From Felis catus (lineage: Eukaryota), in the NCBI RefSeq assembly GCF_018350175.1, contig NC_058368.1, positions 23,190,001 through 23,254,000 of the forward strand: DNA of 64,000 nt, in the 5' to 3' direction. A model generated the notes under the pieces. The model ran no database searches. It was not told the DNA's origin and was given only the letters and a program-made list of their open reading frames with translations. The position numbers and the translations under genes were made by a program. Below, piece by piece: positions 7,304 to 52,936 of this stretch (its first letter is position 1; each line of letters opens with the position of its first letter).

Positions 7304-7309
7304 TTTATT
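7304..7309 (-). promoter_or_regulatory. Candidate NUDT15 polyadenylation signal (AATAAA)
   Basis: tttatt on + strand, ~350 nt past the stop codon, with a GU-rich tract downstream on the minus strand. Confidence 0.45.
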
Positions 7310-7656: not shown

Positions 7657-7796
7657 CTAGAGATGATGACCTTTGTATGCTAACAGGTGATCTAAATCTT
7701 CTTTAAATGGATTGTAGCCTTGTTCCTTTAAACACCGCAGTGCGCAGAAAAGCTGGGCCAGTGGAGGAAATTCTTCCCAGGGAACCCATTCCCAAC
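7657..7796 (-). CDS. NUDT15: Nudix hydrolase 15, coding exon 3 (last)
   Basis: Acceptor tttcttttctag; encodes (S)[48 protein letters not shown]; 140 nt, phase matches exon 2. Confidence 0.96.
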
Positions 7797-9065
7797 CTAG
7801 AAAAGAAAGATACCAAATCAGTTTATTTAGCTGGAAGGAAACAAAGAATATTTATTTTGGCAAGTTAACCTATACTTCGAAAAAATTAATTAAATATAAA
7901 AATGACTTGCAACTAATAATAACATGCTACTAATCACAGTGATGCCATGCATTAGCTCAGCTGTACCAACATCATTTGCCTTTAGAATGAAGGTCTTAAC
8001 AGAAGGGGGATCATTTAAAACATGCTGTTATTTCAACATGAGACCAAGCTTACAAGGGCCCCATGATAGTAAAATCCAGATTTAAGAAAATTCAATTTTT
8101 GCTTGAATATTTGGCTGAACAAAACATACAGAACTTTACACATGACAGGTGGTAACACTACATGAAAACAAACCAGCTGCCCCACCTATAGAATAAGGTA
8201 AGTTACATTTCTAAGCTATCCTCCATCTTGTTAAAAAGTAATGGAAGCTGTGCAGAGAATAAAAATATTCTCTGGCTGTGGTACACTTTAGATAGAAAGA
8301 CAATATGGATGGGACTGATTTTCAAAAATCCATTGAAAAAGGAAAGATTTAACAGTATCTATTGTGAAATACACAAAATCCTAGAAAAATGCTCTAGGCA
8401 ACAGTATTCTCTTTGATGACTTAAATGTAAGGAACATGAAAGCACAGATGCTCATAACAGGTGAATATATAAATACTATATTACTAAGATGTACACTCCA
8501 TGTTCTAAGTTTCTTCATGGTCACACGCATATACTTATGTTTAAATGCAGTTTCTTCCACTAAGTGTTTCTCTGCCTGTAAGATACAGGTATGCAGTTTC
8601 ACTCTGGGACAGGGGACAAAGAATCCATGAAATTAGAACAAGTTCAGGAAGGAGTGATCAGCAACTGTGACCTAAGAGTCTAAGAGAAAGAGAGTAGGAC
8701 AGAAGGAGGGAGAAAGAAAGAGAGACAGAGAGAGAGAGAGGGAGAGAGGTGTCACCCAACAGTGTGTTGCAAGATGCGGAATTAACAGTCTCAAGGGAGC
8801 TGTCTGTAAAGTTTATCCTGTCTGCGAGAAAATGAAGCATCTGGCTGATCCTCCTGATTATAATTGGATGGCTGGAGAAAAGATGTCATAACCAGTAACC
8901 TGAAGCAGGTGATCCAGATCCAGGATCTGACAAACATGGGAGAGAAAATGCATCTTTATGCTATAAATAAAACCACCACCACAGAGCTGCTGCACCCTGG
9001 CTGTGGTGCAGCTGGCTACCCAGCAAGTGAAAATAACTCCTGCTATGTTGTCATGAAGGGCTAGA

Positions 9066-9150
9066 GAGGAATCAGTGTTTCTTTTTTTCTTTTTCTTTTT
9101 CTTTTTCTTTTTCTTTTTTTTTTTTTTTTTTTTGAGGAATCAGTGTTTCT
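9066..9150 (-). mobile_element. Poly(A)-only retro-insertion with 17-bp TSD
   Basis: gaggaatcagtgtttct at 9066-9082 and 9134-9150 flanks a pure T/C tract. Confidence 0.8.
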
Positions 9151-10426
9151 GATCAAATCTGACTTGGTGCTAGTAACCTTGGGCCTTATAAAATCATACT
9201 GTGTGACCTTAGATTACTAGCCTGTGAGAAGGTCAACAAAATGAAGGTGGACAAGCTCAAAAAAAGTTATATAAATGAAAAAAAATCACAAGGCATGTAA
9301 AAATGAGTCAAAACTACCAGATTCTAGGAAGGGAAAAACATTACATACCATAACATAGTAACAAAAACTCTAACACAGAACTTTATAACATAGGATAATA
9401 ATCTTTTAGAAGTTGTTTAAATGTAGGCCGGTCTAGATACTATACTGAAGAACCTCATCCCCTTGTTCCCTTCTTCCTTCAACATGGTCTGAACAATATA
9501 CTCTGAATAGGAGCCAGGCACGGGAGAGTCAAAGGTGAATGAGCCCAAACATCTGCTCTTTATGCATTCAAAGTTCAGTAAAGGAAAACTAGCGAGTACG
9601 ATTTGAAGCTGAACACCCCAACTGAACCTGAGATGCCTTCTAACGTCAGGGGAAGAAAACTAGAAATACAGGCCTACAGTGCAGAGCAGGACAGGAAGTC
9701 GTGCCTTGCACCAGGCTTCAGCAACCCCAACCCCAACAGAGGCGGAGGCGGGGAGGCAGAGGCAGCCGGCTGGAGATTGGTCAGAACTGATGGGACAGTC
9801 AGTGGCTCTGCTGTTTTCCCCTCAGCCCTTCTCCACAAATGAATACTATGTCTGCTCCTTGTGAAGGACGCTAAGTATGCAAAACCAAAGTATTTCATCA
9901 TTTTGTCTCGTCTTGTGTCAGGTTTTTGCTGCTGGTAGAAAAGAGAAAAATAAGGATATGGTCATTCCTTCCAAGTTTAGGGCTCTCTTTTAAGAGAACA
10001 ATAATAATCTGTGCTTACTGCCTGAATATATGACACCTCGAACTAATTTTTAAAAATTCAGTTATGGGAACTGTGCTTTAAAGAAAAAAAGTAAATTGAG
10101 TCCTACAAAAAGTATTAAAGTGGAAATATACATATTTACACTGCAAGTTAATATTAAAAAGACAAGTAACTGTTCCTCCCCACAGCTTCAGGATGTCAAG
10201 ACTACTGAGTTGTGTTTCCACTGTTACTCTGGACTCCCCTCTCTCCTATTCCTCCTTTTATCCAGGATCATTGGGGATGTGAGAGATAGAAGAACTTGTA
10301 GACAGCGCCCCCAGTGAACCTGGTACATTTTCTCACCTGCCCTTCTTAAGGCATGAATGATTTTAGTTGTACCTTAGGCCAACTGAAAGCCTTTGGATAC
10401 TTCTTGGGTATTGATGTGTGTGTCGC

Positions 10427-11280
10427 TGTGATATAAGGAATATATATATAAGGAATATATATGATATATTCCTTATATCATAATCTATATATAGCTTTCC
10501 TCCCTGTTTTCTGGCACAGAGTTCCCGAAACCTTTGTATTTTCCTAAGAGATAGGGACGAGAGGAACACTTGCTATCCATAATAAGCCTCTTTCAACCGT
10601 ACCTGAGTTTATGCTAATAAGCTGATGGGTGGCTGGGCTGAACCTATCCTTAGATAGGTTCAGAACTGGGGGCTGGTGACCAGAAAGATACATCCCACCT
10701 GAGGAGAGAGGAGAGGAGCTGGAGATTGAATTAATCACCAGCAGATAATGATTTAATCAATCATAGAGACTATGATAATATGTACCAATCCCATTACATA
10801 CGAACCTCTATGAAAACCCCACACAACAGGATTCAGAGAGTTTTCTGGGAGGTGAACACGTCAAGGTGCTCATTGAGAGTACGGATGCTCTGCGTCCCTC
10901 CCTCTGCCCACCTTGCCCAGTGCGTCTTCCATGTGGCTGTTTCTGAGCTGCTTCCTCTATAACAAACTGGTAATGTAAGTAAAGTGGTTTCCTGAGTTCT
11001 GAAGGCCATTCTAGCAAATTACTGAACCTGAGGAGGAGGTTGTGGGAACCCCAATTTATAGCCAGGTGACCAGAAGTACAGGAGGCCAGGACTTAGCGAC
11101 TGGTATTTGAAGTGGGTGCAGTCTTGTGGGACGGACTCTGTAATGTTTGGGATCTGACACTGACTCCAAGTAGACAGTGCAAGAATGTAACTGAATTACA
11201 GGGCATCCAATTGATGTCCGGAGAACTATTTGATGTGAAGAAAAGAGCCACAGGTTTGGTGTTGGAGTGTAGTGAGTAAA
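10427..11280 (+). mobile_element. MER21-like ERV LTR in NUDT15 intron 2
   Basis: Starts tgtgatata; contains ctggcacagag, tttatgctaat, gggggctggtgaccagaaaga and gatttaatcaatcat motifs recalled from MER21. Confidence 0.75.
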
Positions 11281-11454
11281 AATAGCTCAGATGTTGCTAG
11301 TTCACTTTAGATGATTCCAAGTCATTACCTGTTTTATAAACAGTCGTATATGACTCAACAGGCCTTCGGGTAGAACATGCCCTTCTGTTCAGTCAATGAA
11401 TTCAATCTGCAAACCACTTAACTCATGATTTATCCATTCTAGAAATTTCACTTC

Positions 11455-11730
11455 TTCCAGGCCTTGGCACATATGCCCTCTCCTCAGAGGCCCTCCATGA
11501 CCACCCTGTCTGATGCAGCACCCATGGGTCACTATCCTTTACACCGTTTTACTTTTATTCTTATTCCTTATCATTACATTGTAAAGTATCTGCTAATGTG
11601 TTGCCTTTCCCCCGGATTAAAAAAAATGTAAAACCTGAGAGGGGAGGGACTTTGTTCCACACACCACTGTTTCTTTAGCGCCTAGAATGGTACCTGGCAT
11701 GCAGTACTCAGTAAGCATTTGTTGAATGAC
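11455..11730 (+). mobile_element. L2 3' end fragment
   Basis: cctagaatggtacctggcatgcagtactcagtaagcatttgttgaatga is a typical L2 terminus. Confidence 0.7.
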
Positions 11731-12114
11731 AAGATTCTTCCATAGTGGAGAATAAATTAAATGTTTATAGGGGAGGTCCAGTACACAAGACCGCTTGGAT
11801 AAGGTTTCACAAGGCAAAGAATATATTTGGTAAGTTTGATATTTTATTCCTTCTCATGGAGTTTTATGAAATTTGAAGAGAGATGATCCATGCAAAGCCC
11901 TTAGGACAATGCTTAGCACACAGTAAATCACATCAATGTTGTTAAAGCTTTCAGAGCACTCGACTCAACACCGAGGATAATTGTTTTGTCAGGTTAGTCA
12001 CTCTCCATGCAAGGAAATTTGTATCTTTCTTACACATGTGAGAAAACTGAGGATGGCACCTTCAACGTTTTGCTTAAAATCAGTCTGAAGCAAAATTAAA
12101 TGCTAAAAATAAAA

Positions 12115-12320
12115 CTAAGACTTACTGAGTACTTACAGTGTTCATTTGGTTCTTTATATGTATTAACTAATTTTATCCCTACAACAACCCATCGGAGGTA
12201 GTTGCTATTATCACAGAGGAGAAAAGAGACCCAGAGACATGAAATAACTCGCCCAAGGTTACAAACCTCTACGTGGAAAAACCAGCATGCAAGTCAAGTA
12301 GTCTGGCTCCAGGCCAGTTC
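12115..12320. mobile_element. MIR SINE
   Basis: ttactgagtacttac...acaacccatcggaggtag...aaataactcgcccaaggttaca core. Confidence 0.7.
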
Positions 12321-12474
12321 TGTTTCCTGCTATATGCTTATGTCTCCAGGATTTAAGTATATGTATTTACACTTCTGTATGAAAAGCCTAATTCTCTTTG
12401 CATGGCAAACATAATGTAATACTCAGATGATAAACTCCTCAAAGATCAGGAATTATTACACATAATTCTCTTAC

Positions 12475-12671
12475 TTTCATTTTTTTCAGGCTCTGTGTTC
12501 TTTGGTTCTGAATCATAAGTCATGTCCACTTCCCCTTTCATTAGTATTGTCACATAATGGTAATTTTCTTTCTTATCAAAGGAATTCACGACTGAGGCAA
12601 AGCGAACATTTTTCAAGCGAAGAGCTGCTTCTTCCCAGGTTTCCCTTTGAGCACATTCTTCCCACGTTTCC
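12475..12671 (-). CDS. NUDT15: Nudix hydrolase 15, coding exon 2
   Basis: ttttccag acceptor and GTAAGA donor; 197 nt; encodes (G)[22 protein letters not shown]...EPEKNE, completing the Nudix box [24 protein letters not shown]. Confidence 0.97.
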
Positions 12672-14113
12672 CTGGAAAACAGAAGCACAGCACTGTATTC
12701 AATTTTAGTTACATAACTTATTATTTTTTTGCCATGAAATTCCTGCCTAGAAATTTCTAGTCTAAAGCAAAAAACAAAAAACCCTGTAATTGGCTCTTGC
12801 TTTCTAACAATCAATCAACAACCCTGCCTTTGGACATTCTCTTTATCTCAACTATAAAGTATCTGAAGTTATCTGAAGACCAAAAGGACTTCCTATTGAG
12901 AAAAAAAGAACATTTAGCCAATTCAGCACTAGTTCACGTGCCTGGCAACTGTATGCAATCAGGAGACAGTTAAGGATACAGTTAAGAGCACAGGCTTTGG
13001 AGTCAGCTAAACCTAATAAAAAGAAGTATTACTACTTTCCAACGGGGTTGTTGCAAGTGTATCAATAAGTGGATGATGTCTTTTCCTGCAGTCTCAGAAT
13101 TTTCGTTGAAGCCTTAAAATTCAGGACAATAGGCAATAAACACCTCAAATTCTAAAGAGTATGGCAAGAGAGCAAACAGATGCCATCGAAAGGCTTGCAA
13201 GTCTCTTGACCTTCACCCTACCCAGCCTACATAATAAGGAGATTTAGGGCAGGGAGGAAAGTTATGAATTTTCAAGCATAGTAGCAACGTTTCCCTTCAT
13301 CCTGATGAAAGGACAACTCTGCCTGAAGCCAAGTGAGAGGTGCTTCAAGAAAACTGATCACAGAGATTGAGTGTGATTCCCAAGGAGATACTGGTGTGTT
13401 CCTCCCCTGCTAAAGTCATATCGAGCTACAGAAACTCACAGGCCTGTGATTCAGAGTAGAGGTGGTACAAAGGTAAGAGCTCTTGGGCAAGTCTAAAGTG
13501 TGTCCCTCGGTGTTTAGGGATGTACGTGAATAGAGAAGCTGACGTTTATTCCCACTTTGAGAATCTGGAAAGCAGGAGACTGGCTACAGAAGCCCACCAT
13601 GAATGAGCAAGGAGAAAGGGTGACAGTGAGGGCATTACTCCCATTGTGAATTTTCTTCTGGGTCCAGTAGATGCTACAAGAGACTGCTGGGGATCCCAGC
13701 AGAAAGAAAAAGCAAGATGGTGTTCTAATAAGCAAGAGCTAAATCAGCCACCTATGTCTGAGAACTGTGCAGGAGAGACATCCTTGTGGGATTTCCAAAC
13801 AACCAACAGACATACCCTGAGGAAGAGGGCACAACACCCAGAGGGCACCAATGGATGGATCACAGCAGCACTAGTCATGTAAAAAGTTTGGCCCACCCTC
13901 TCCCTCCCCAACATCCTGGAGAGGGAAGGAAACCAGAAACAGTGAGAAAAGGAGGAGGTCTTCCTCCTCTCTCCTTTCCCCACTACAGACAAATGCTTGG
14001 AAGTGGATCATAATGACCAAACGTGATTTATTTTTCTAATCAAGTGACAGGAAAACTGTAGAATTTGCAGGAAATGTCAGAGAACAGCAGAAAAGGGAAA
14101 GACAACAGAAGGA

Positions 14114-14325
14114 GGGGTGCTTGGGTGGCTTAGTCAGTTAAGCCTCCAACTCTTGGTTTCCACTCAGGTCATGATCTCTTGGTTTTGTGGGTTTTAGCCC
14201 CATGTCAGGCTCTGCACTGGCAATGTGGAGCCTGCTTGGGATTCATTCTCTCTCCCTCTCTCTCTGCCCCTACCCCACTGGCAGTGTCTCTGCCTATCTC
14301 AAAATAAATAAGCTTAAAAAAAAAT
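14114..14325 (+). mobile_element. Carnivore SINE
   Basis: tRNA-derived head, CT tract, AATAAA/A tail. Confidence 0.9.
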
Positions 14326-14666
14326 TACAAAGACAAGGGAAGGAGAAAATAAAGCCATTTTCTATTTGTCTCCTCTCAAACTTAGCCCATTCAGTATACC
14401 AGTCATATAAAGATAAGTGAAAGCATATATGTGAAGAGCTTGGCATAATATCTAGCACTCAGTAAAAAGCTCATTAAAGGACAATTTTGCCTATTATCAT
14501 TGGATATCTGAGTAAAGATTCCAATACTTTATTGTGTTAGCATTAAGATATCTATCTCTAGCCATTGCAATTGACAAAGTACAATACAGTGTGTCCCTCT
14601 GGGCAATGTGACCCTTAACCTGGAAATTTTATTAGTTATTAACTGAAGGTTTATCTTAATTATCTA

Positions 14667-14888
14667 GGGGCACCTGGGTGGCTCAGTTGGTTAAGTGGCT
14701 GACTTCGGCTCAGGTCATGATCTTGCAGTTCATGAGATCAAGCCCCGCATCGGGCTCTGTGCTGACAGCTCGGAGCCTGGAGCCTGGAGCCTGCTCCGGA
14801 TTCTGTGTCTCCCTCTCTCTCTGCCCCTCCCCTGCTCGCACTCTGTCTCTCTCTCAAAAATAAACATGAAAAAAAAATTTTTAAATGT
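14667..14888 (+). mobile_element. Carnivore SINE with TSD
   Basis: TSD tttatcttaattatcta at 14650-14666 / 14889-14905. Confidence 0.92.
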
Positions 14889-16253
14889 TTTATCTTAATT
14901 ATCTAAAAATGATAAACTTGATGTTTTTTAAAATCCTGAAAACCATTTAAAAAATTCCATGTGCTAAAAGATCATAGGAATTCCATGTTTTATCAAAGAC
15001 AAAGTCTGATTAAAAGGCACCTGCATCAAGTCTCTAACTAGCACTTTATAACAAATAGGTAGATTACAAGAATATAGTCAGAATGTAAGAAATTCTAATG
15101 ACCCATACTCTTCAACATGGGATGGTAAAAAAAGGGAAAGAGGGATTACTGTTAGATTTGGAGACTTAAATTTATCAATCCCAAATTACAATCAATCCCA
15201 AAGTACAATCTTCCTTTGATCTTGATTGGTAGAAAACAATACATTTTCAAGACAAATGGGGAAAGTGGTACAGACTGACTATATCACAGGTTATTAAAGA
15301 ATTATCTTGTTAAGGTGTGAAAACGTATTTTCTTAAGGTGTGAAAATGGAGTTACATTTTTTAAAAAAGCCTATGACAGGTACATAACGAACTGTTTATG
15401 GGCGGTATAATAAATGTCCGCGTTTTCCTTCAGAAGAGTCTAGAAAACAAGGGATCTGTATGTCTGTTGGGATGGAGCAGTAAAGATGAAACAAGAACAA
15501 GCCAAGTAGTAAGTATATGAGGATTCACCAACTGTTTACTTTCATGTATGTTTGCACTTTCACACTAATGCAAAAACAAGCGCTGGCTCTGATCGCTTTA
15601 GATACTGTTCATCCACCGTTGACTTTAACCTATTCTCACTTCAGAACCCACCTTTTAGCAAAATCCCCGGCTTTCCGCACCATTGGGTAGATCTGACCCT
15701 TAACTGTCCAACTTCCTTTATCGGTCTGATCCGCCATCAAACACAGAATGCCACGTTAAAGAGTGCTCCGTCCAACCCCCCCACTGTATAGATGAAGACA
15801 CTGAGGCCCAGAGTTTCACTAGCCCATGTGCTTGGTCACGGCGCAGCCAAACCTGCGGGGGCAGGACACAGGCCGTCCATCCGTGTACGTTTAGTGCACA
15901 GCCCGAACCGTGCAAGTGCCTGAACTGCCACAACTGGGCTAGATCTTCATAAAGACCCACTTTCCGCCTCTTATATGTAAACATTAAGAAAAACACACCC
16001 TACACATCAGCCCGCAGGCGCGGATAGAAGGCTGCCGGCAGAAAAAGGACTGGGCTGGCGGGGCTCAGGCCGACCACAGACCCTTCGCCAGCCCTCCGCA
16101 GCTCAGCGCCCCCTCCCGGCCGGCGCTTGCACCCAGGAGCGCGGCGGCCCGAGGAGAGAACAGAGGAACGCGCGAGATGACGCAGCGTCGGAAAGACGCA
16201 ACGCACGGGGAGAGCTCGTCCTTCCCGTGCAAGTTTGGCTCTCCTTCGGTGGG

Positions 16254-16360
16254 CTCGGTGGTAGCTCACCCGAATTCCAAATGGCCCCCGGGGAGTTGAT
16301 AACTGCCTCGGTGGTTGCTCACCCGAATTCCAAATGGCCCCCGGGGAGTTGATAACTGCC
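16254..16360. repeat. 53-bp tandem duplication across the NUDT15 exon 1 / intron 1 junction
   Basis: Copies at 16254-16306 and 16307-16359 differ at one base (16263 a vs 16316 t). Confidence 0.95.
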
Positions 16361-16480
16361 GGCTCCTATAATCCCTTTCCTCTTCCCCAGGAGGACGCAA
16401 CGAGGATGCTTGCTGCTAGTCACCACTACTCCTACCGCGACTCCAAGCCGCCTACCCTGCGGCTCCGCGCGGGCCGTCAT
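16323..16480 (-). CDS. NUDT15: Nudix hydrolase 15, coding exon 1
   Basis: ATG at 16480; [52 protein letters not shown](G); donor GG|GTGAGC; 158+197+140=495 nt = 164 aa plus stop. Confidence 0.97.
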
Positions 16481-17160
16481 AGCGCGCGAGACCCGGCAGA
16501 GGCTGCGGGAAGTGACGTTCGCTCCGCCCCATGGGCCACGACCAGTGTCGCTGAGCCTGCGCGGGTCCCTGAAATCAAAGCCCGAGTCCCTGGGACGTAA
16601 CCTTCGTGCGTGGTGTCTCTGCCTCACGTGGGGATCCCAGCTTGAGAAGTGTCGCGTTGCCTACCCCAGGACTGCCCGTCAAGGTTTCGTTTTAAGTAAT
16701 GCCACTTACTGTTGTACTTTCAACGTTTATTATTCTCTATTCTCAGATTTCTCCATCATGCGTTTACCAGCCACACGCTTTTATAAACCTCTGGGCCTTT
16801 GCACTTCCCATTTCTTTGTGTTTGGGTGAACTTCACCACCACAGTAAATTAATTCTAATTATAACTCCAGTCAGTGTTGGACCAGGACAAGGACGGATAG
16901 TATAGAAACAACCTAGTATAAATAATTGAGAGTATTAACACAACATGGGAAAAAATTAAGGACAAACAATAAATTGTGCTGGAAGGAGCTAGATATTTGA
17001 GAGGAAAGAGAGCCACTGTTCCAGTTGTTTGCACACCATGCACTGGCAAAATAATCCCACCTGAAACAGGATTGTAATGAAAGTGAACTAAAAACGAGCA
17101 AATAACTAGACTTCGGATGGGGAGCATTTAATTTTTTTTTCATTAAAATAAATTAAGTTT

Positions 17161-31539: not shown

Positions 31540-32200
31540 TGGTAATCCCTGCTAAGAAAGTCCGCATCTGCAGAGTTAACCGAGGTCCCGCCCGCGAAGG
31601 GTGGGGCGAGGGGTGGAGTGCGCGTCGCAAGCAGCTGGGTCGCCGGCCGCCTTGCGCCTCTGCGCCTGCGCACGGCGCCGAGGGGACGGGGTCGGGCTCA
31701 GAAATGGCGGCCTCCATGTTCTACAGCCGGCTATTGGCCACAGCCGCCCTTAGAAGCTGCGGGTCCCGGCCGGCGCTGCGGGCCGCCGCCCAGGTATTGC
31801 GGCCCAGCCGGCTCTCGCTTGGAGGGCCGGCAGGAGAAAGGGCGAGGTGGGAGACCTGGTTCCTGTGGGCGAGGTGTGAGGGGATCTGAGGCCCGGCTCG
31901 GGGTCACTTCGCAGTAGGTGACATTGCGTGACGTGGGGTGCCCAGCCGGGCCCGCGGGCGGCGTGCCCTGGAGTGCTGCCTGCCGTGACAGAGAGCGGGC
32001 CCATGTTTGCGCTGCTCTGCTCCCGGGCCATCTGGCTGCGGCTGCTCACCCAGTTGCCGAGGGGCCGCAGGGAGGCGGGTGGAGGGCGCTTCCAAGTGGA
32101 GGTGGAGGTGCCTGGGCAGTTTCTGCTCCTTTTTCTGTGCCCCGCAAGGTGGGCCGAGGCTTCTGCGGCCCTTCTGTGGGGAGGGGGAAATGCCCTTCAC
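31540..32200. promoter_or_regulatory. CpG island / SUCLA2 promoter
   Basis: CpG-rich; GC boxes at ~31587-31620; NRF1-like TGCGCCTGCGCA at 31661-31672; YY1-like AAATGGCGGC overlapping the ATG. Confidence 0.88.
31704..31793 (+). CDS. SUCLA2: Succinate-CoA ligase ADP-forming subunit beta, exon 1 (mitochondrial targeting peptide)
   Basis: MAASMFYSRLLATAALRSCGSRPALRAAAQ; 90 nt; donor CAG|GTATTG. Confidence 0.95.
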
Positions 32201-39811: not shown

Positions 39812-40005
39812 GGGGTGCCTGGGTGGCTCAGTCGGTTGAGTGCCCGACTTCAGCTCAGGTCGTGATCTCACCGTTAGTGGGTTCAAGCCCCACTGAGCTA
39901 ATAGCTCAGAGCCTGAAGATTGCTTCAGATTCTGTCTCCCTCTCTCTCTGCAGCTCCCCATTCACACTGTGTCTGTCTCTTGAAAATAAATAAATGTTTA
40001 AAAAA
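39812..40005 (+). mobile_element. Carnivore SINE
   Basis: TSD aaaagctgtgcttcata at 39795-39811 / 40006-40022. Confidence 0.93.
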
Positions 40006-46077: not shown

Positions 46078-46123
<46 letters not shown>

Positions 46124-46286
46124 CAGAAACAGGCTCTGTGCTGACAGAGAGAGAGAGAGAGAGGATCAGAAACAGGCTCTGTGCTGACAACCGAGAGCCC
46201 CATGCAGGGCTTGAACTCATGAACTGTGAGATCATGAACCTGAGCTGAAGTTGGATGCTTAACTGACTGAGCCACCCAGGCGCCCC
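46028..46286 (-). mobile_element. Carnivore SINE with (GA)n expansion and internal ~43-bp duplication
   Basis: ggatcagaaacaggctctgtgctgaca occurs twice (near 46120 and 46163). Confidence 0.92.
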
Positions 46287-52469: not shown

Positions 52470-52936
52470 TTAAAATTTTATTTATTTTTATTTTTTATAT
52501 TTTTGAAGTTTATTTTGAAAGAGTACACATGTGGGGCACCTGGGTGGCTCAGTCGGTTGAGTGTCCGACTTCGGCTCAGATCATGATCTCAGTTTGTGAG
52601 TTCGAGCCTCACGTCAGGCTCTGTGCTGACAGTTCAGAGCCTGGATCCTGCTTCGGATTCTGTATTTCCCTCTCTCTCTGCTCTTCCCCTGCTCACATGC
52701 TGTCTCTCTCTCAAAAATAAGTAAAGATTAAAAAAAAAATTAAAAAAAAAAAAAGAAAGAGTACATGTGTGAGTGGGGAAGGGGCAGAGAGAGAGGAGAG
52801 AGAGAATCCCAAGTGGGCTTCATGCTGTCAGTGCCAAGCCTGATGTGGGGCTCAGTCCCATGAACTGCTGAGATCATGACCAGAGCTGAAATCAATAGTC
52901 AGGATACTTAACTGACTGAGCCACCCAGGTGCCTCC
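52470..52936. mobile_element. Plus-strand SINE (52533-52754) nested in a minus-strand SINE
   Basis: Inner TSD gaaagagtacacatgt (52517-52532) / gaaagagtacatgtgt (52755-52770). Confidence 0.9.

Follow-up and report, generated by a model that had tools for sequence, protein, structure and literature searches.

The NUDT15 locus of the domestic cat: an intact gene with a duplicated exon-1 donor and accelerated protein change in small cats

Introduction

Does the Nudix diphosphatase NUDT15 contribute to the thiopurine sensitivity of cats? This question is raised by a stretch of 64,000 nucleotides of Felis catus DNA (NCBI RefSeq assembly GCF_018350175.1, contig NC_058368.1, positions 23,190,001 to 23,254,000; the whole stretch is called the window below), in which NUDT15 lies on the minus strand at 7657..16480. 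According to the available parts of two reviews (PMC12033501 and PMC6327590), azathioprine caused leukopenia in 5 of 8 cats of one series, and the toxicity is ascribed to low TPMT, in the words "presumably" and "likely". An initial annotation of the window had proposed that a duplicated splice donor and substitutions in the ligand pocket compromise NUDT15 and open a second route to this toxicity. The analysis presented here revealed a lineage-specific acceleration of protein change in small cats, which is the sturdier result, while the headline claim of that annotation was weakened at the protein level.

Results

A single intact NUDT15 gene

The reading frame starts with an ATG at 16480 and ends with a TAG at 7657, so that the locus spans exactly from start to stop codon. 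It is divided into three exons, each of which matched human NUDT15 in the Protein Data Bank (PDB):

16480-16323, minus strand: coding exon 1 (Met1 to Gly53), 158 nt
12671-12475, minus strand: exon 2, with the Nudix helix (E63, E66, E67) and E113, 197 nt
7796-7657, minus strand: coding part of exon 3, up to the stop codon, 140 nt

The spliced sequence of 495 nt encodes 164 amino acids without an internal stop, and the product is identical to XP_003980425.1 of Felis catus; both the gene and the protein are thus already annotated in the cat. Because of this identity the species, which the initial annotation had left in doubt, is settled at the protein level as the domestic cat, and the changes described below are present in Felis catus. 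The same annotation had stated that the reading frame and the catalytic glutamates are intact, and this was confirmed by the 164 codons free of stops and the presence of E63, E66, E67 and E113; the main transcript showed no frameshift, premature stop or lost catalytic residue. A genome search returned the locus itself and two further matches (L002 and L003), both intronless and carrying stops and frameshifts. The locus is therefore the single intact NUDT15 gene of the cat, and a pseudogene reading was ruled out by the open frame of 164 codons and the identity with the annotated protein, the broken copies being located elsewhere. The old intronless copy L002 keeps the ancestral states at two of the changed sites, with Trp where the cat has C136 and Asp where it has A132.

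A literature search found no paper on cat NUDT15, within a coverage that leaves out most subscription journals and hence gives no proof. The listed papers that combine NUDT15 with cats and azathioprine all belong to human medicine, and none of those listed on feline or canine topics mentions NUDT15. The search also returned nothing pairing NUDT15 with P12L, G15A or W136C, and no match pairing it with felinine.

Duplication of the exon-1 donor

The duplicated donor claimed in the initial annotation is a real 53-bp tandem repeat at 16254-16359, whose copies agree at 52 of 53 bases and which doubles the splice donor of exon 1. The repeat unit joins the final 37 nt of exon 1 to the initial 16 nt of intron 1:

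16307..16359, minus strand: repeat copy 1, with the productive donor GT at 16322-16321 (donor 1), used by the RefSeq cat isoforms X1 and X3
16254..16306, minus strand: repeat copy 2, intronic, with the second donor GT at 16269-16268 (donor 2), matching the splice form of UniRef A0ABI7ZBG6

Apart from one 43-bp repeat, the window holds no other non-simple tandem duplication of 40-70 bp with at least 95% identity. An exact 43-bp tandem duplication is found at 46103-46189, beginning in an AG microsatellite inside a stretch that resembles a short interspersed element (SINE).

Fourteen listed sequencing runs contain all 80 sampled words of 15900-16700, and after removal of the four runs marked as a possible source, all 80 words are still present in 10 runs, which represent 6 samples in 5 studies. 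Between 39 and 60 of 757 distinct 31-mers require the duplication, and the chance that none of these was sampled is approximately 0.001-0.015. On these two grounds the duplication represents a real allele, and an assembly artefact is made unlikely by the runs with all sampled words, including those from non-source samples. The run list ranks the best holders and gives no allele frequency for the duplication; RNA runs with partial word shares (0.05-0.97) were not used as evidence.

Splicing at donor 2 retains 53 extra bases and brings a TGA into frame at codon 54 (16321-16319), before E63, E66 and E67. With this stop 246 nt 5' of the last junction, the resulting transcript is a candidate for nonsense-mediated decay. 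A functional protein from this form was ruled out, as the frame of the sole in-frame ATG further upstream ends after 26 codons, and the methionines that follow (M97 and M103) lie beyond the catalytic helix; donor 2 is thus predicted to yield a truncated product only. The two donors differ by a single base, at +7, where donor 1 but not donor 2 agrees with the U1 consensus, and both RefSeq cat isoforms with exon 1 are spliced at donor 1. The UniRef entry A0ABI7ZBG6 (Felis catus, 160 amino acids, lacking an initial Met) corresponds exactly to the stop-to-stop frame of the donor-2 splice form. This entry probably derives from a transcript model, may rest on the same assembly and is silent on abundance. 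When read-through models were sought in other species, the query alone came back (1 of 2 candidates), a weak indication of how old the duplication is.

Substitutions in the protein and their scores in a mutational scan

Cat and human NUDT15 are identical at 139 of 164 positions (85%) in a gap-free alignment. Most of the 25 differences are residues common in mammals or peculiarities of the human protein. Conservation was counted over 43 non-felid mammals (42 for residue 43), with the following results for four codons:

16445..16447, minus strand: codon 12, Pro to Leu; Pro in 43/43 non-felid mammals
16436..16438, minus strand: codon 15, Gly to Ala; Gly in 43/43 non-felid mammals
16352..16354, minus strand: codon 43, Phe to Tyr; Tyr in all 12 felid rows, Phe in 42/42 others
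7744..7746, minus strand: codon 136, Trp to Cys, at the base of the pocket; Trp in 43/43 non-felid mammals

The pocket substitutions on which the initial annotation relied were therefore upheld in part: P12L, G15A and W136C are located at sites that are otherwise invariant, but G137A, also at a pocket position, is no peculiarity of the cat, since Ala is found in 32/43 non-felid mammals and, according to the available part of PMC8079283, also in the mouse. In human NUDT15, as far as the available parts of the structural papers show, W136 sits at the base of the pocket (PMC4532830) and shifts by 3.2 Å between ligands (PMC8263746), and P12 packs against H91 and F52 (PMC8079283).

The catalytic and ligand residues R34, Q44, L45, P46, G47, G48, H49, E54, R62, E63, E66, E67, Y90, T94, E113, K116, F135, L138 and R139 are all kept. 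The Nudix box (GX5EX7REUXEEXGU) is present with E63, E66 and E67, together with E113, R34 and H49, and the box region equals that of the human protein. The AlphaFold model built from an alignment of 66 sequences had a predicted local distance difference test (pLDDT) value of 88.5 and a template-modelling (TM) score of 0.90 to human 5bon in Foldseek, although a predicted Nudix fold is insensitive to point changes; the single-sequence model was discarded (pLDDT 44.5).

The functional weight of the substitutions was read from the saturation mutagenesis of human NUDT15 by Suiter et al. (bioRxiv 10.1101/740837), with score values from the supplementary table of PMC13732479; both sources were available in part, which applies to all scan values below, given as abundance/protection. 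All 25 cat changes were scored singly, and their minima range from 0.53 to 1.16. The scores were 0.83/1.26 for P12L, 0.98/0.53 for G15A, 1.16/1.63 for F43Y, 1.00/0.93 for W136C, 0.98/0.63 for G137A, 0.79/0.88 for D132A, 1.22/0.84 for I85D and 0.90/0.69 for G158A. In the same table, the minima were 0.04-0.35 for five patient risk alleles and 0.46-0.98 for four non-risk alleles, and because the two groups are split, the published cut-off of 0.4 works on this scale. None of the 25 cat changes scored below it, and no cat NUDT15 substitution is damaging on its own. The compromised enzyme of the initial annotation thus found no support at the protein level.

F43Y, P12L and L128F protected better than the wild type, and F43Y was accordingly ruled out as a damaging change. 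W136C was ruled out as a loss-of-function change for thiopurines, as 18/18 listed substitutions at residue 136 scored at least 0.57. Because W136 is invariant in other mammals and yet irrelevant for thioguanine, this residue appears to serve something other than thioguanine protection. The sole change that is both mildly reduced and restricted to cats is G15A, whose score of 0.53 falls between those of S83Y (0.46) and R11Q (0.57), alleles found in patients without toxicity.

Accelerated protein change in small cats

Comparison among felids showed that NUDT15 of puma/jaguarundi, cheetah, clouded leopard and four Panthera species differs mutually by 1-3 residues, whereas the cat protein is 11-13 residues apart from those of puma, cheetah and the pantherines. 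When tiger or clouded leopard served as outgroup in the relative rate test, the ratio of cat to puma changes was 11:0 (p = 0.001), and the same test gave 9:0 for bobcat, 8:0 for leopard cat and 9:0 for Geoffroy's cat. With non-felid outgroups p was below 0.05 in 14 of 16 tests, which are not independent of each other. Since the small-cat protein changed far faster than that of the puma or the big cats, either its constraint or its function has shifted.

The changes R24K, A85D, W136C and G158A are common to Leopardus, Lynx, Prionailurus and Felis, and P12L and G15A are common to Leopardus, Prionailurus and Felis and absent from Lynx; D132A skips Leopardus and E86K skips Prionailurus. These conflicting shared changes across genera, skipping the puma line, hint at lineage sorting or introgression at the locus.

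TPMT served as control. The cat sequence differed from four full-length pantherine sequences at 1-3 of 245 residues, and from the jaguarundi and cheetah isoforms at none over the shared N-terminal 180 or more residues, differences after residue 180-194 or thereabouts being set aside as alternative C-termini; compared to hyaenas, 16-17 differences were found. Cat TPMT is full length and near-identical across felids (0-3/245).

With 11 changes in approximately 363 nonsynonymous sites, cat NUDT15 reaches or exceeds the 3-9 expected under neutrality for an assumed branch length of 0.008-0.025. Among the 15 small-cat changes none is damaging, as compared to 265 of 837 (~32%) single-base missense changes in the scan (p ~0.003), which makes a complete relaxation unlikely. 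Change that is fast but filtered in this way is better explained by a shift of function than by decay. The relaxed constraint or altered function suggested by the initial annotation is thus retained as a shift, shown by the 11:0 rate, and not as complete relaxation.

Other features of the locus

Further transcript features and signals at the locus are as follows:

10603..10698, minus strand: in-frame cassette exon in intron 2, 96 nt, adding 32 amino acids after residue 119; RefSeq X1/X2, cat and other felids
15652..15737, minus strand: alternative first coding exon of RefSeq isoform X2, its end taken from the printed sequence
16001..16500, no strand: CpG island over exon 1, GC 0.65, CpG observed/expected 0.93
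7304..7309, minus strand: first AATAAA 3' of the stop codon, candidate poly(A) signal

The cassette exon is annotated in cat, leopard cat, Geoffroy's cat, jaguarundi, cheetah, clouded leopard and leopard, and by eye its stretch resembles a long terminal repeat. Inserted right after the E113-E118 loop, it probably spoils the enzyme, and it is possibly another drain on functional NUDT15 mRNA. The first exon of the X2 type, common to six felid annotations, replaces residues 1-53, so that its product is without half of the pocket. An upstream ATG at 16532 on the minus strand, 52 nt before the main start, opens a frame of 26 codons that overlaps the NUDT15 start out of frame and could dampen translation, if transcribed.

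Elsewhere in the window, a second CpG island is located at 31.5-32 kb, with a first exon near 31,790 on the plus strand, head to head with NUDT15, which resembles that of SUCLA2. ARAGORN called tRNAs at 39816-39900 and 52538-52621, which are probably the tRNA-derived heads of carnivore SINEs.

Discussion

The explanation that best accommodates these results, and which we hold to be somewhat probable, is that the cat has an intact, active Nudix diphosphatase with a remodelled pocket, a partial loss of transcripts through donor 2, and thiopurine protection that is near normal or mildly lower. The enzyme would be produced from donor 1 and, as modelled, would fold like human NUDT15; it would hydrolyse nucleotide and probably isoprenoid pyrophosphates. 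Donor 2 would compete, diverting a probably partial share of transcripts into the dead end at codon 54. The substitutions would have been filtered to retain fold and activity and, with P12L, G15A, T37I, V38I, D132A and W136C, would have retuned the pocket at its rim and floor, most likely to suit a natural substrate and not as decay. With net protection near normal or mildly lower, low TPMT most likely stays the main cause of feline azathioprine toxicity. If low TPMT activity were caused by the protein, it would be family-wide and not specific to the domestic cat, given the near-identity of TPMT in felids.

Several points weigh against this explanation. From -3 to +6 donor 2 has the sequence of donor 1, with a U1 duplex energy of -10.4 kcal/mol for both, and of equal donors more than about 40 nt apart, the downstream one is often favoured. 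The rate test was post hoc, with one control gene (TPMT) and no synonymous rate. The scan covers single changes in a human background in overexpressing HEK293T cells, and its sensitivity assay misses R139C (0.76) and R139H (0.98), which are caught by the abundance assay only. A naive product of protection scores amounts to 0.33 over the ten measured small-cat changes and 1.97 over the other 15, and the corresponding product of abundance over all 25 changes, equally crude, to 0.34, so that the substitutions may still have a summed effect. In addition, the attribution of the toxicity to TPMT is hedged in both reviews.

The other explanations overlap with this one and with each other, and the likelihoods that we give them are not parts of one whole. 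It is rather unlikely that cats are NUDT15 hypomorphs, in which a large share of donor 2, additive effects of G15A, G158A, D132A and P12L, or both, lower the clearance of thioguanine nucleotides and add to low TPMT. Such a condition is suggested by the core sequence of donor 2, equal to that of donor 1, by the UniRef entry lacking Met, which equals the donor-2 frame and points to a transcript-derived model, and by the position of the donor-2 stop as a candidate for nonsense-mediated decay; the duplication was present in at least six samples beyond the possible source, G15A lowers thioguanine protection to 0.53 at normal abundance, and P12 has the packing contacts with H91 and F52 described above (PMC8079283). 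However, none of the single changes reaches the damaging range, G15A is flanked by two alleles found without toxicity, F43Y, P12L and L128F lie above the wild type for protection, and the RefSeq isoforms with exon 1 use donor 1, where alone the +7 base fits the U1 consensus.

Possible, though on the unlikely side, is an origin of the changes in partial relaxation, drift and the sorting of old haplotypes during a rapid radiation, with the duplication as a neutral recent indel. The irregular distribution of the changes is consistent with it, as Lynx lacks P12L and G15A, Leopardus lacks D132A and Prionailurus lacks E86K, and none of the four changes shared by these three genera and Felis occurs in the puma line, which is nested among the four. 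An 11:0 ratio is expected by chance in some of many genes, and a two-fold faster clock in small cats would raise p to 0.012; moreover, 64% of NUDT15 missense changes are non-damaging according to the available part of the scan report (bioRxiv 10.1101/740837). Against drift stand the 11 changes, which meet or exceed the neutral expectation of 3-9 under the assumed branch length, the three changes at sites invariant in 43/43 other mammals, and TPMT, which had no comparable burst.

An improbable explanation, which would account for the raised rate and is compatible with the best one, is that small-cat NUDT15 was selected for better hydrolysis of isopentenyl and dimethylallyl pyrophosphate (IPP and DMAPP), for the C5 unit of felinine or for a lower sterol flux, at a small thiopurine cost. 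Very improbable is the specific form in which NUDT15 would have been repurposed to supply the felinine C5 unit, in convergence with the use of NUDX1 for scent in roses; a weaker thiopurine clearance, through G15A and the loss of mRNA to donor 2, would then come as a by-product and compound the effect of low TPMT. Felinine, the tomcat scent precursor, derives from glutathione and a C5 unit of the mevalonate pathway. Its excreters include Felis, Lynx and Leopardus, whereas lions, tigers, pumas and cheetahs are not known to excrete it, a distribution that the accelerated group (Leopardus, Lynx, Prionailurus and Felis) resembles. On the other side, Lynx is without G15A though it excretes felinine, and a felinine breakdown product has been reported from the urine of leopards, which keep the old pocket.

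The biochemical basis for this explanation comes from the available part of a report (bioRxiv 10.1101/2023.11.29.569174) in which human NUDT15 hydrolyses IPP, DMAPP, geranyl pyrophosphate (GPP) and farnesyl pyrophosphate (FPP) to monophosphates, its overexpression lowers cell cholesterol, and G15 contacts geranyl phosphate in the human crystal structure. According to the same source, Ala at the G15 site of Arabidopsis NUDT1 belongs to a more hydrophobic pocket, which may explain the higher isoprenoid activity of that enzyme. Cat Ala15 is that residue, and the closest non-animal structures to the cat protein are plant NUDX1 enzymes; among the pocket positions of NUDX1-type enzymes, Ala15 is present in the cat and Gly17 is unchanged. 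Conversely, human NUDT18 is reported there to be the better isoprenoid pyrophosphatase, more than 5-fold for GPP, and W136 is outside the geranyl phosphate contacts listed.

From the route to thiopurine sensitivity proposed in the initial annotation, the duplicated donor and the altered evolution remain, and a damaging single change is missing. The link now depends on how much mRNA donor 2 diverts and on how the substitutions act together, and a measurable contribution of NUDT15 to feline azathioprine sensitivity appears doubtful. The idea that NUDT15 underlies a marrow toxicity of acyclovir or valacyclovir in cats was set aside, as the literature searches gave no confirmation of this toxicity. 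In the available part of PMC8263746, NUDT15-null cells without a viral kinase remain resistant to both drugs.

Compared to human NUDT15 (MTH2; PDB 5bon, 5lpg, 7b7v, 7r0d), the cat protein has the same length and predicted fold, and keeps the catalytic residues and all named thio-GMP contacts except the main-chain contact G137; unlike the human gene, the cat locus has the 25 substitutions, the duplicated exon-1 donor and the felid cassette exon in intron 2. The human risk alleles R139C, R139H, K33E, R34T and V75G concern the same gene and the same proposed route of toxicity, but the cat retains K33, R34, V75 and R139, and its changes score at least 0.53 against 0.04-0.35. NUDT15 of puma, cheetah and the pantherines shares F43Y and other felid-wide residues with the cat, and differs in retaining P12, G15 and W136. 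The plant NUDX1 enzymes (Arabidopsis NUDT1 and the rose geranyl diphosphate phosphohydrolase) show approximately 36-41% identity and TM scores of 0.67-0.74; Arabidopsis NUDT1 shares Ala at the position of cat A15 and, in the available part of its report, has Val where the cat keeps G17. Low erythrocyte TPMT activity, the standing explanation of the same toxicity in the available parts of the reviews, concerns a different enzyme, which in the cat is full length and near-unchanged across felids.

If donor 2 takes a large share of the transcripts, the cat would carry a species-wide or common NUDT15 hypomorph, and with it a second cause of a known veterinary drug toxicity. Beyond drugs, the role of NUDT15 in nature is not settled; in small cats, pocket residues that are invariant in other mammals changed quickly, with no loss of thiopurine function in the human scan, and the cat and puma proteins, with their 11 differences, constitute a natural enzyme pair for finding the substrate under selection. 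If neither is true, the cat gene would be an orthologue like any other, and its intronic duplication would be harmless.

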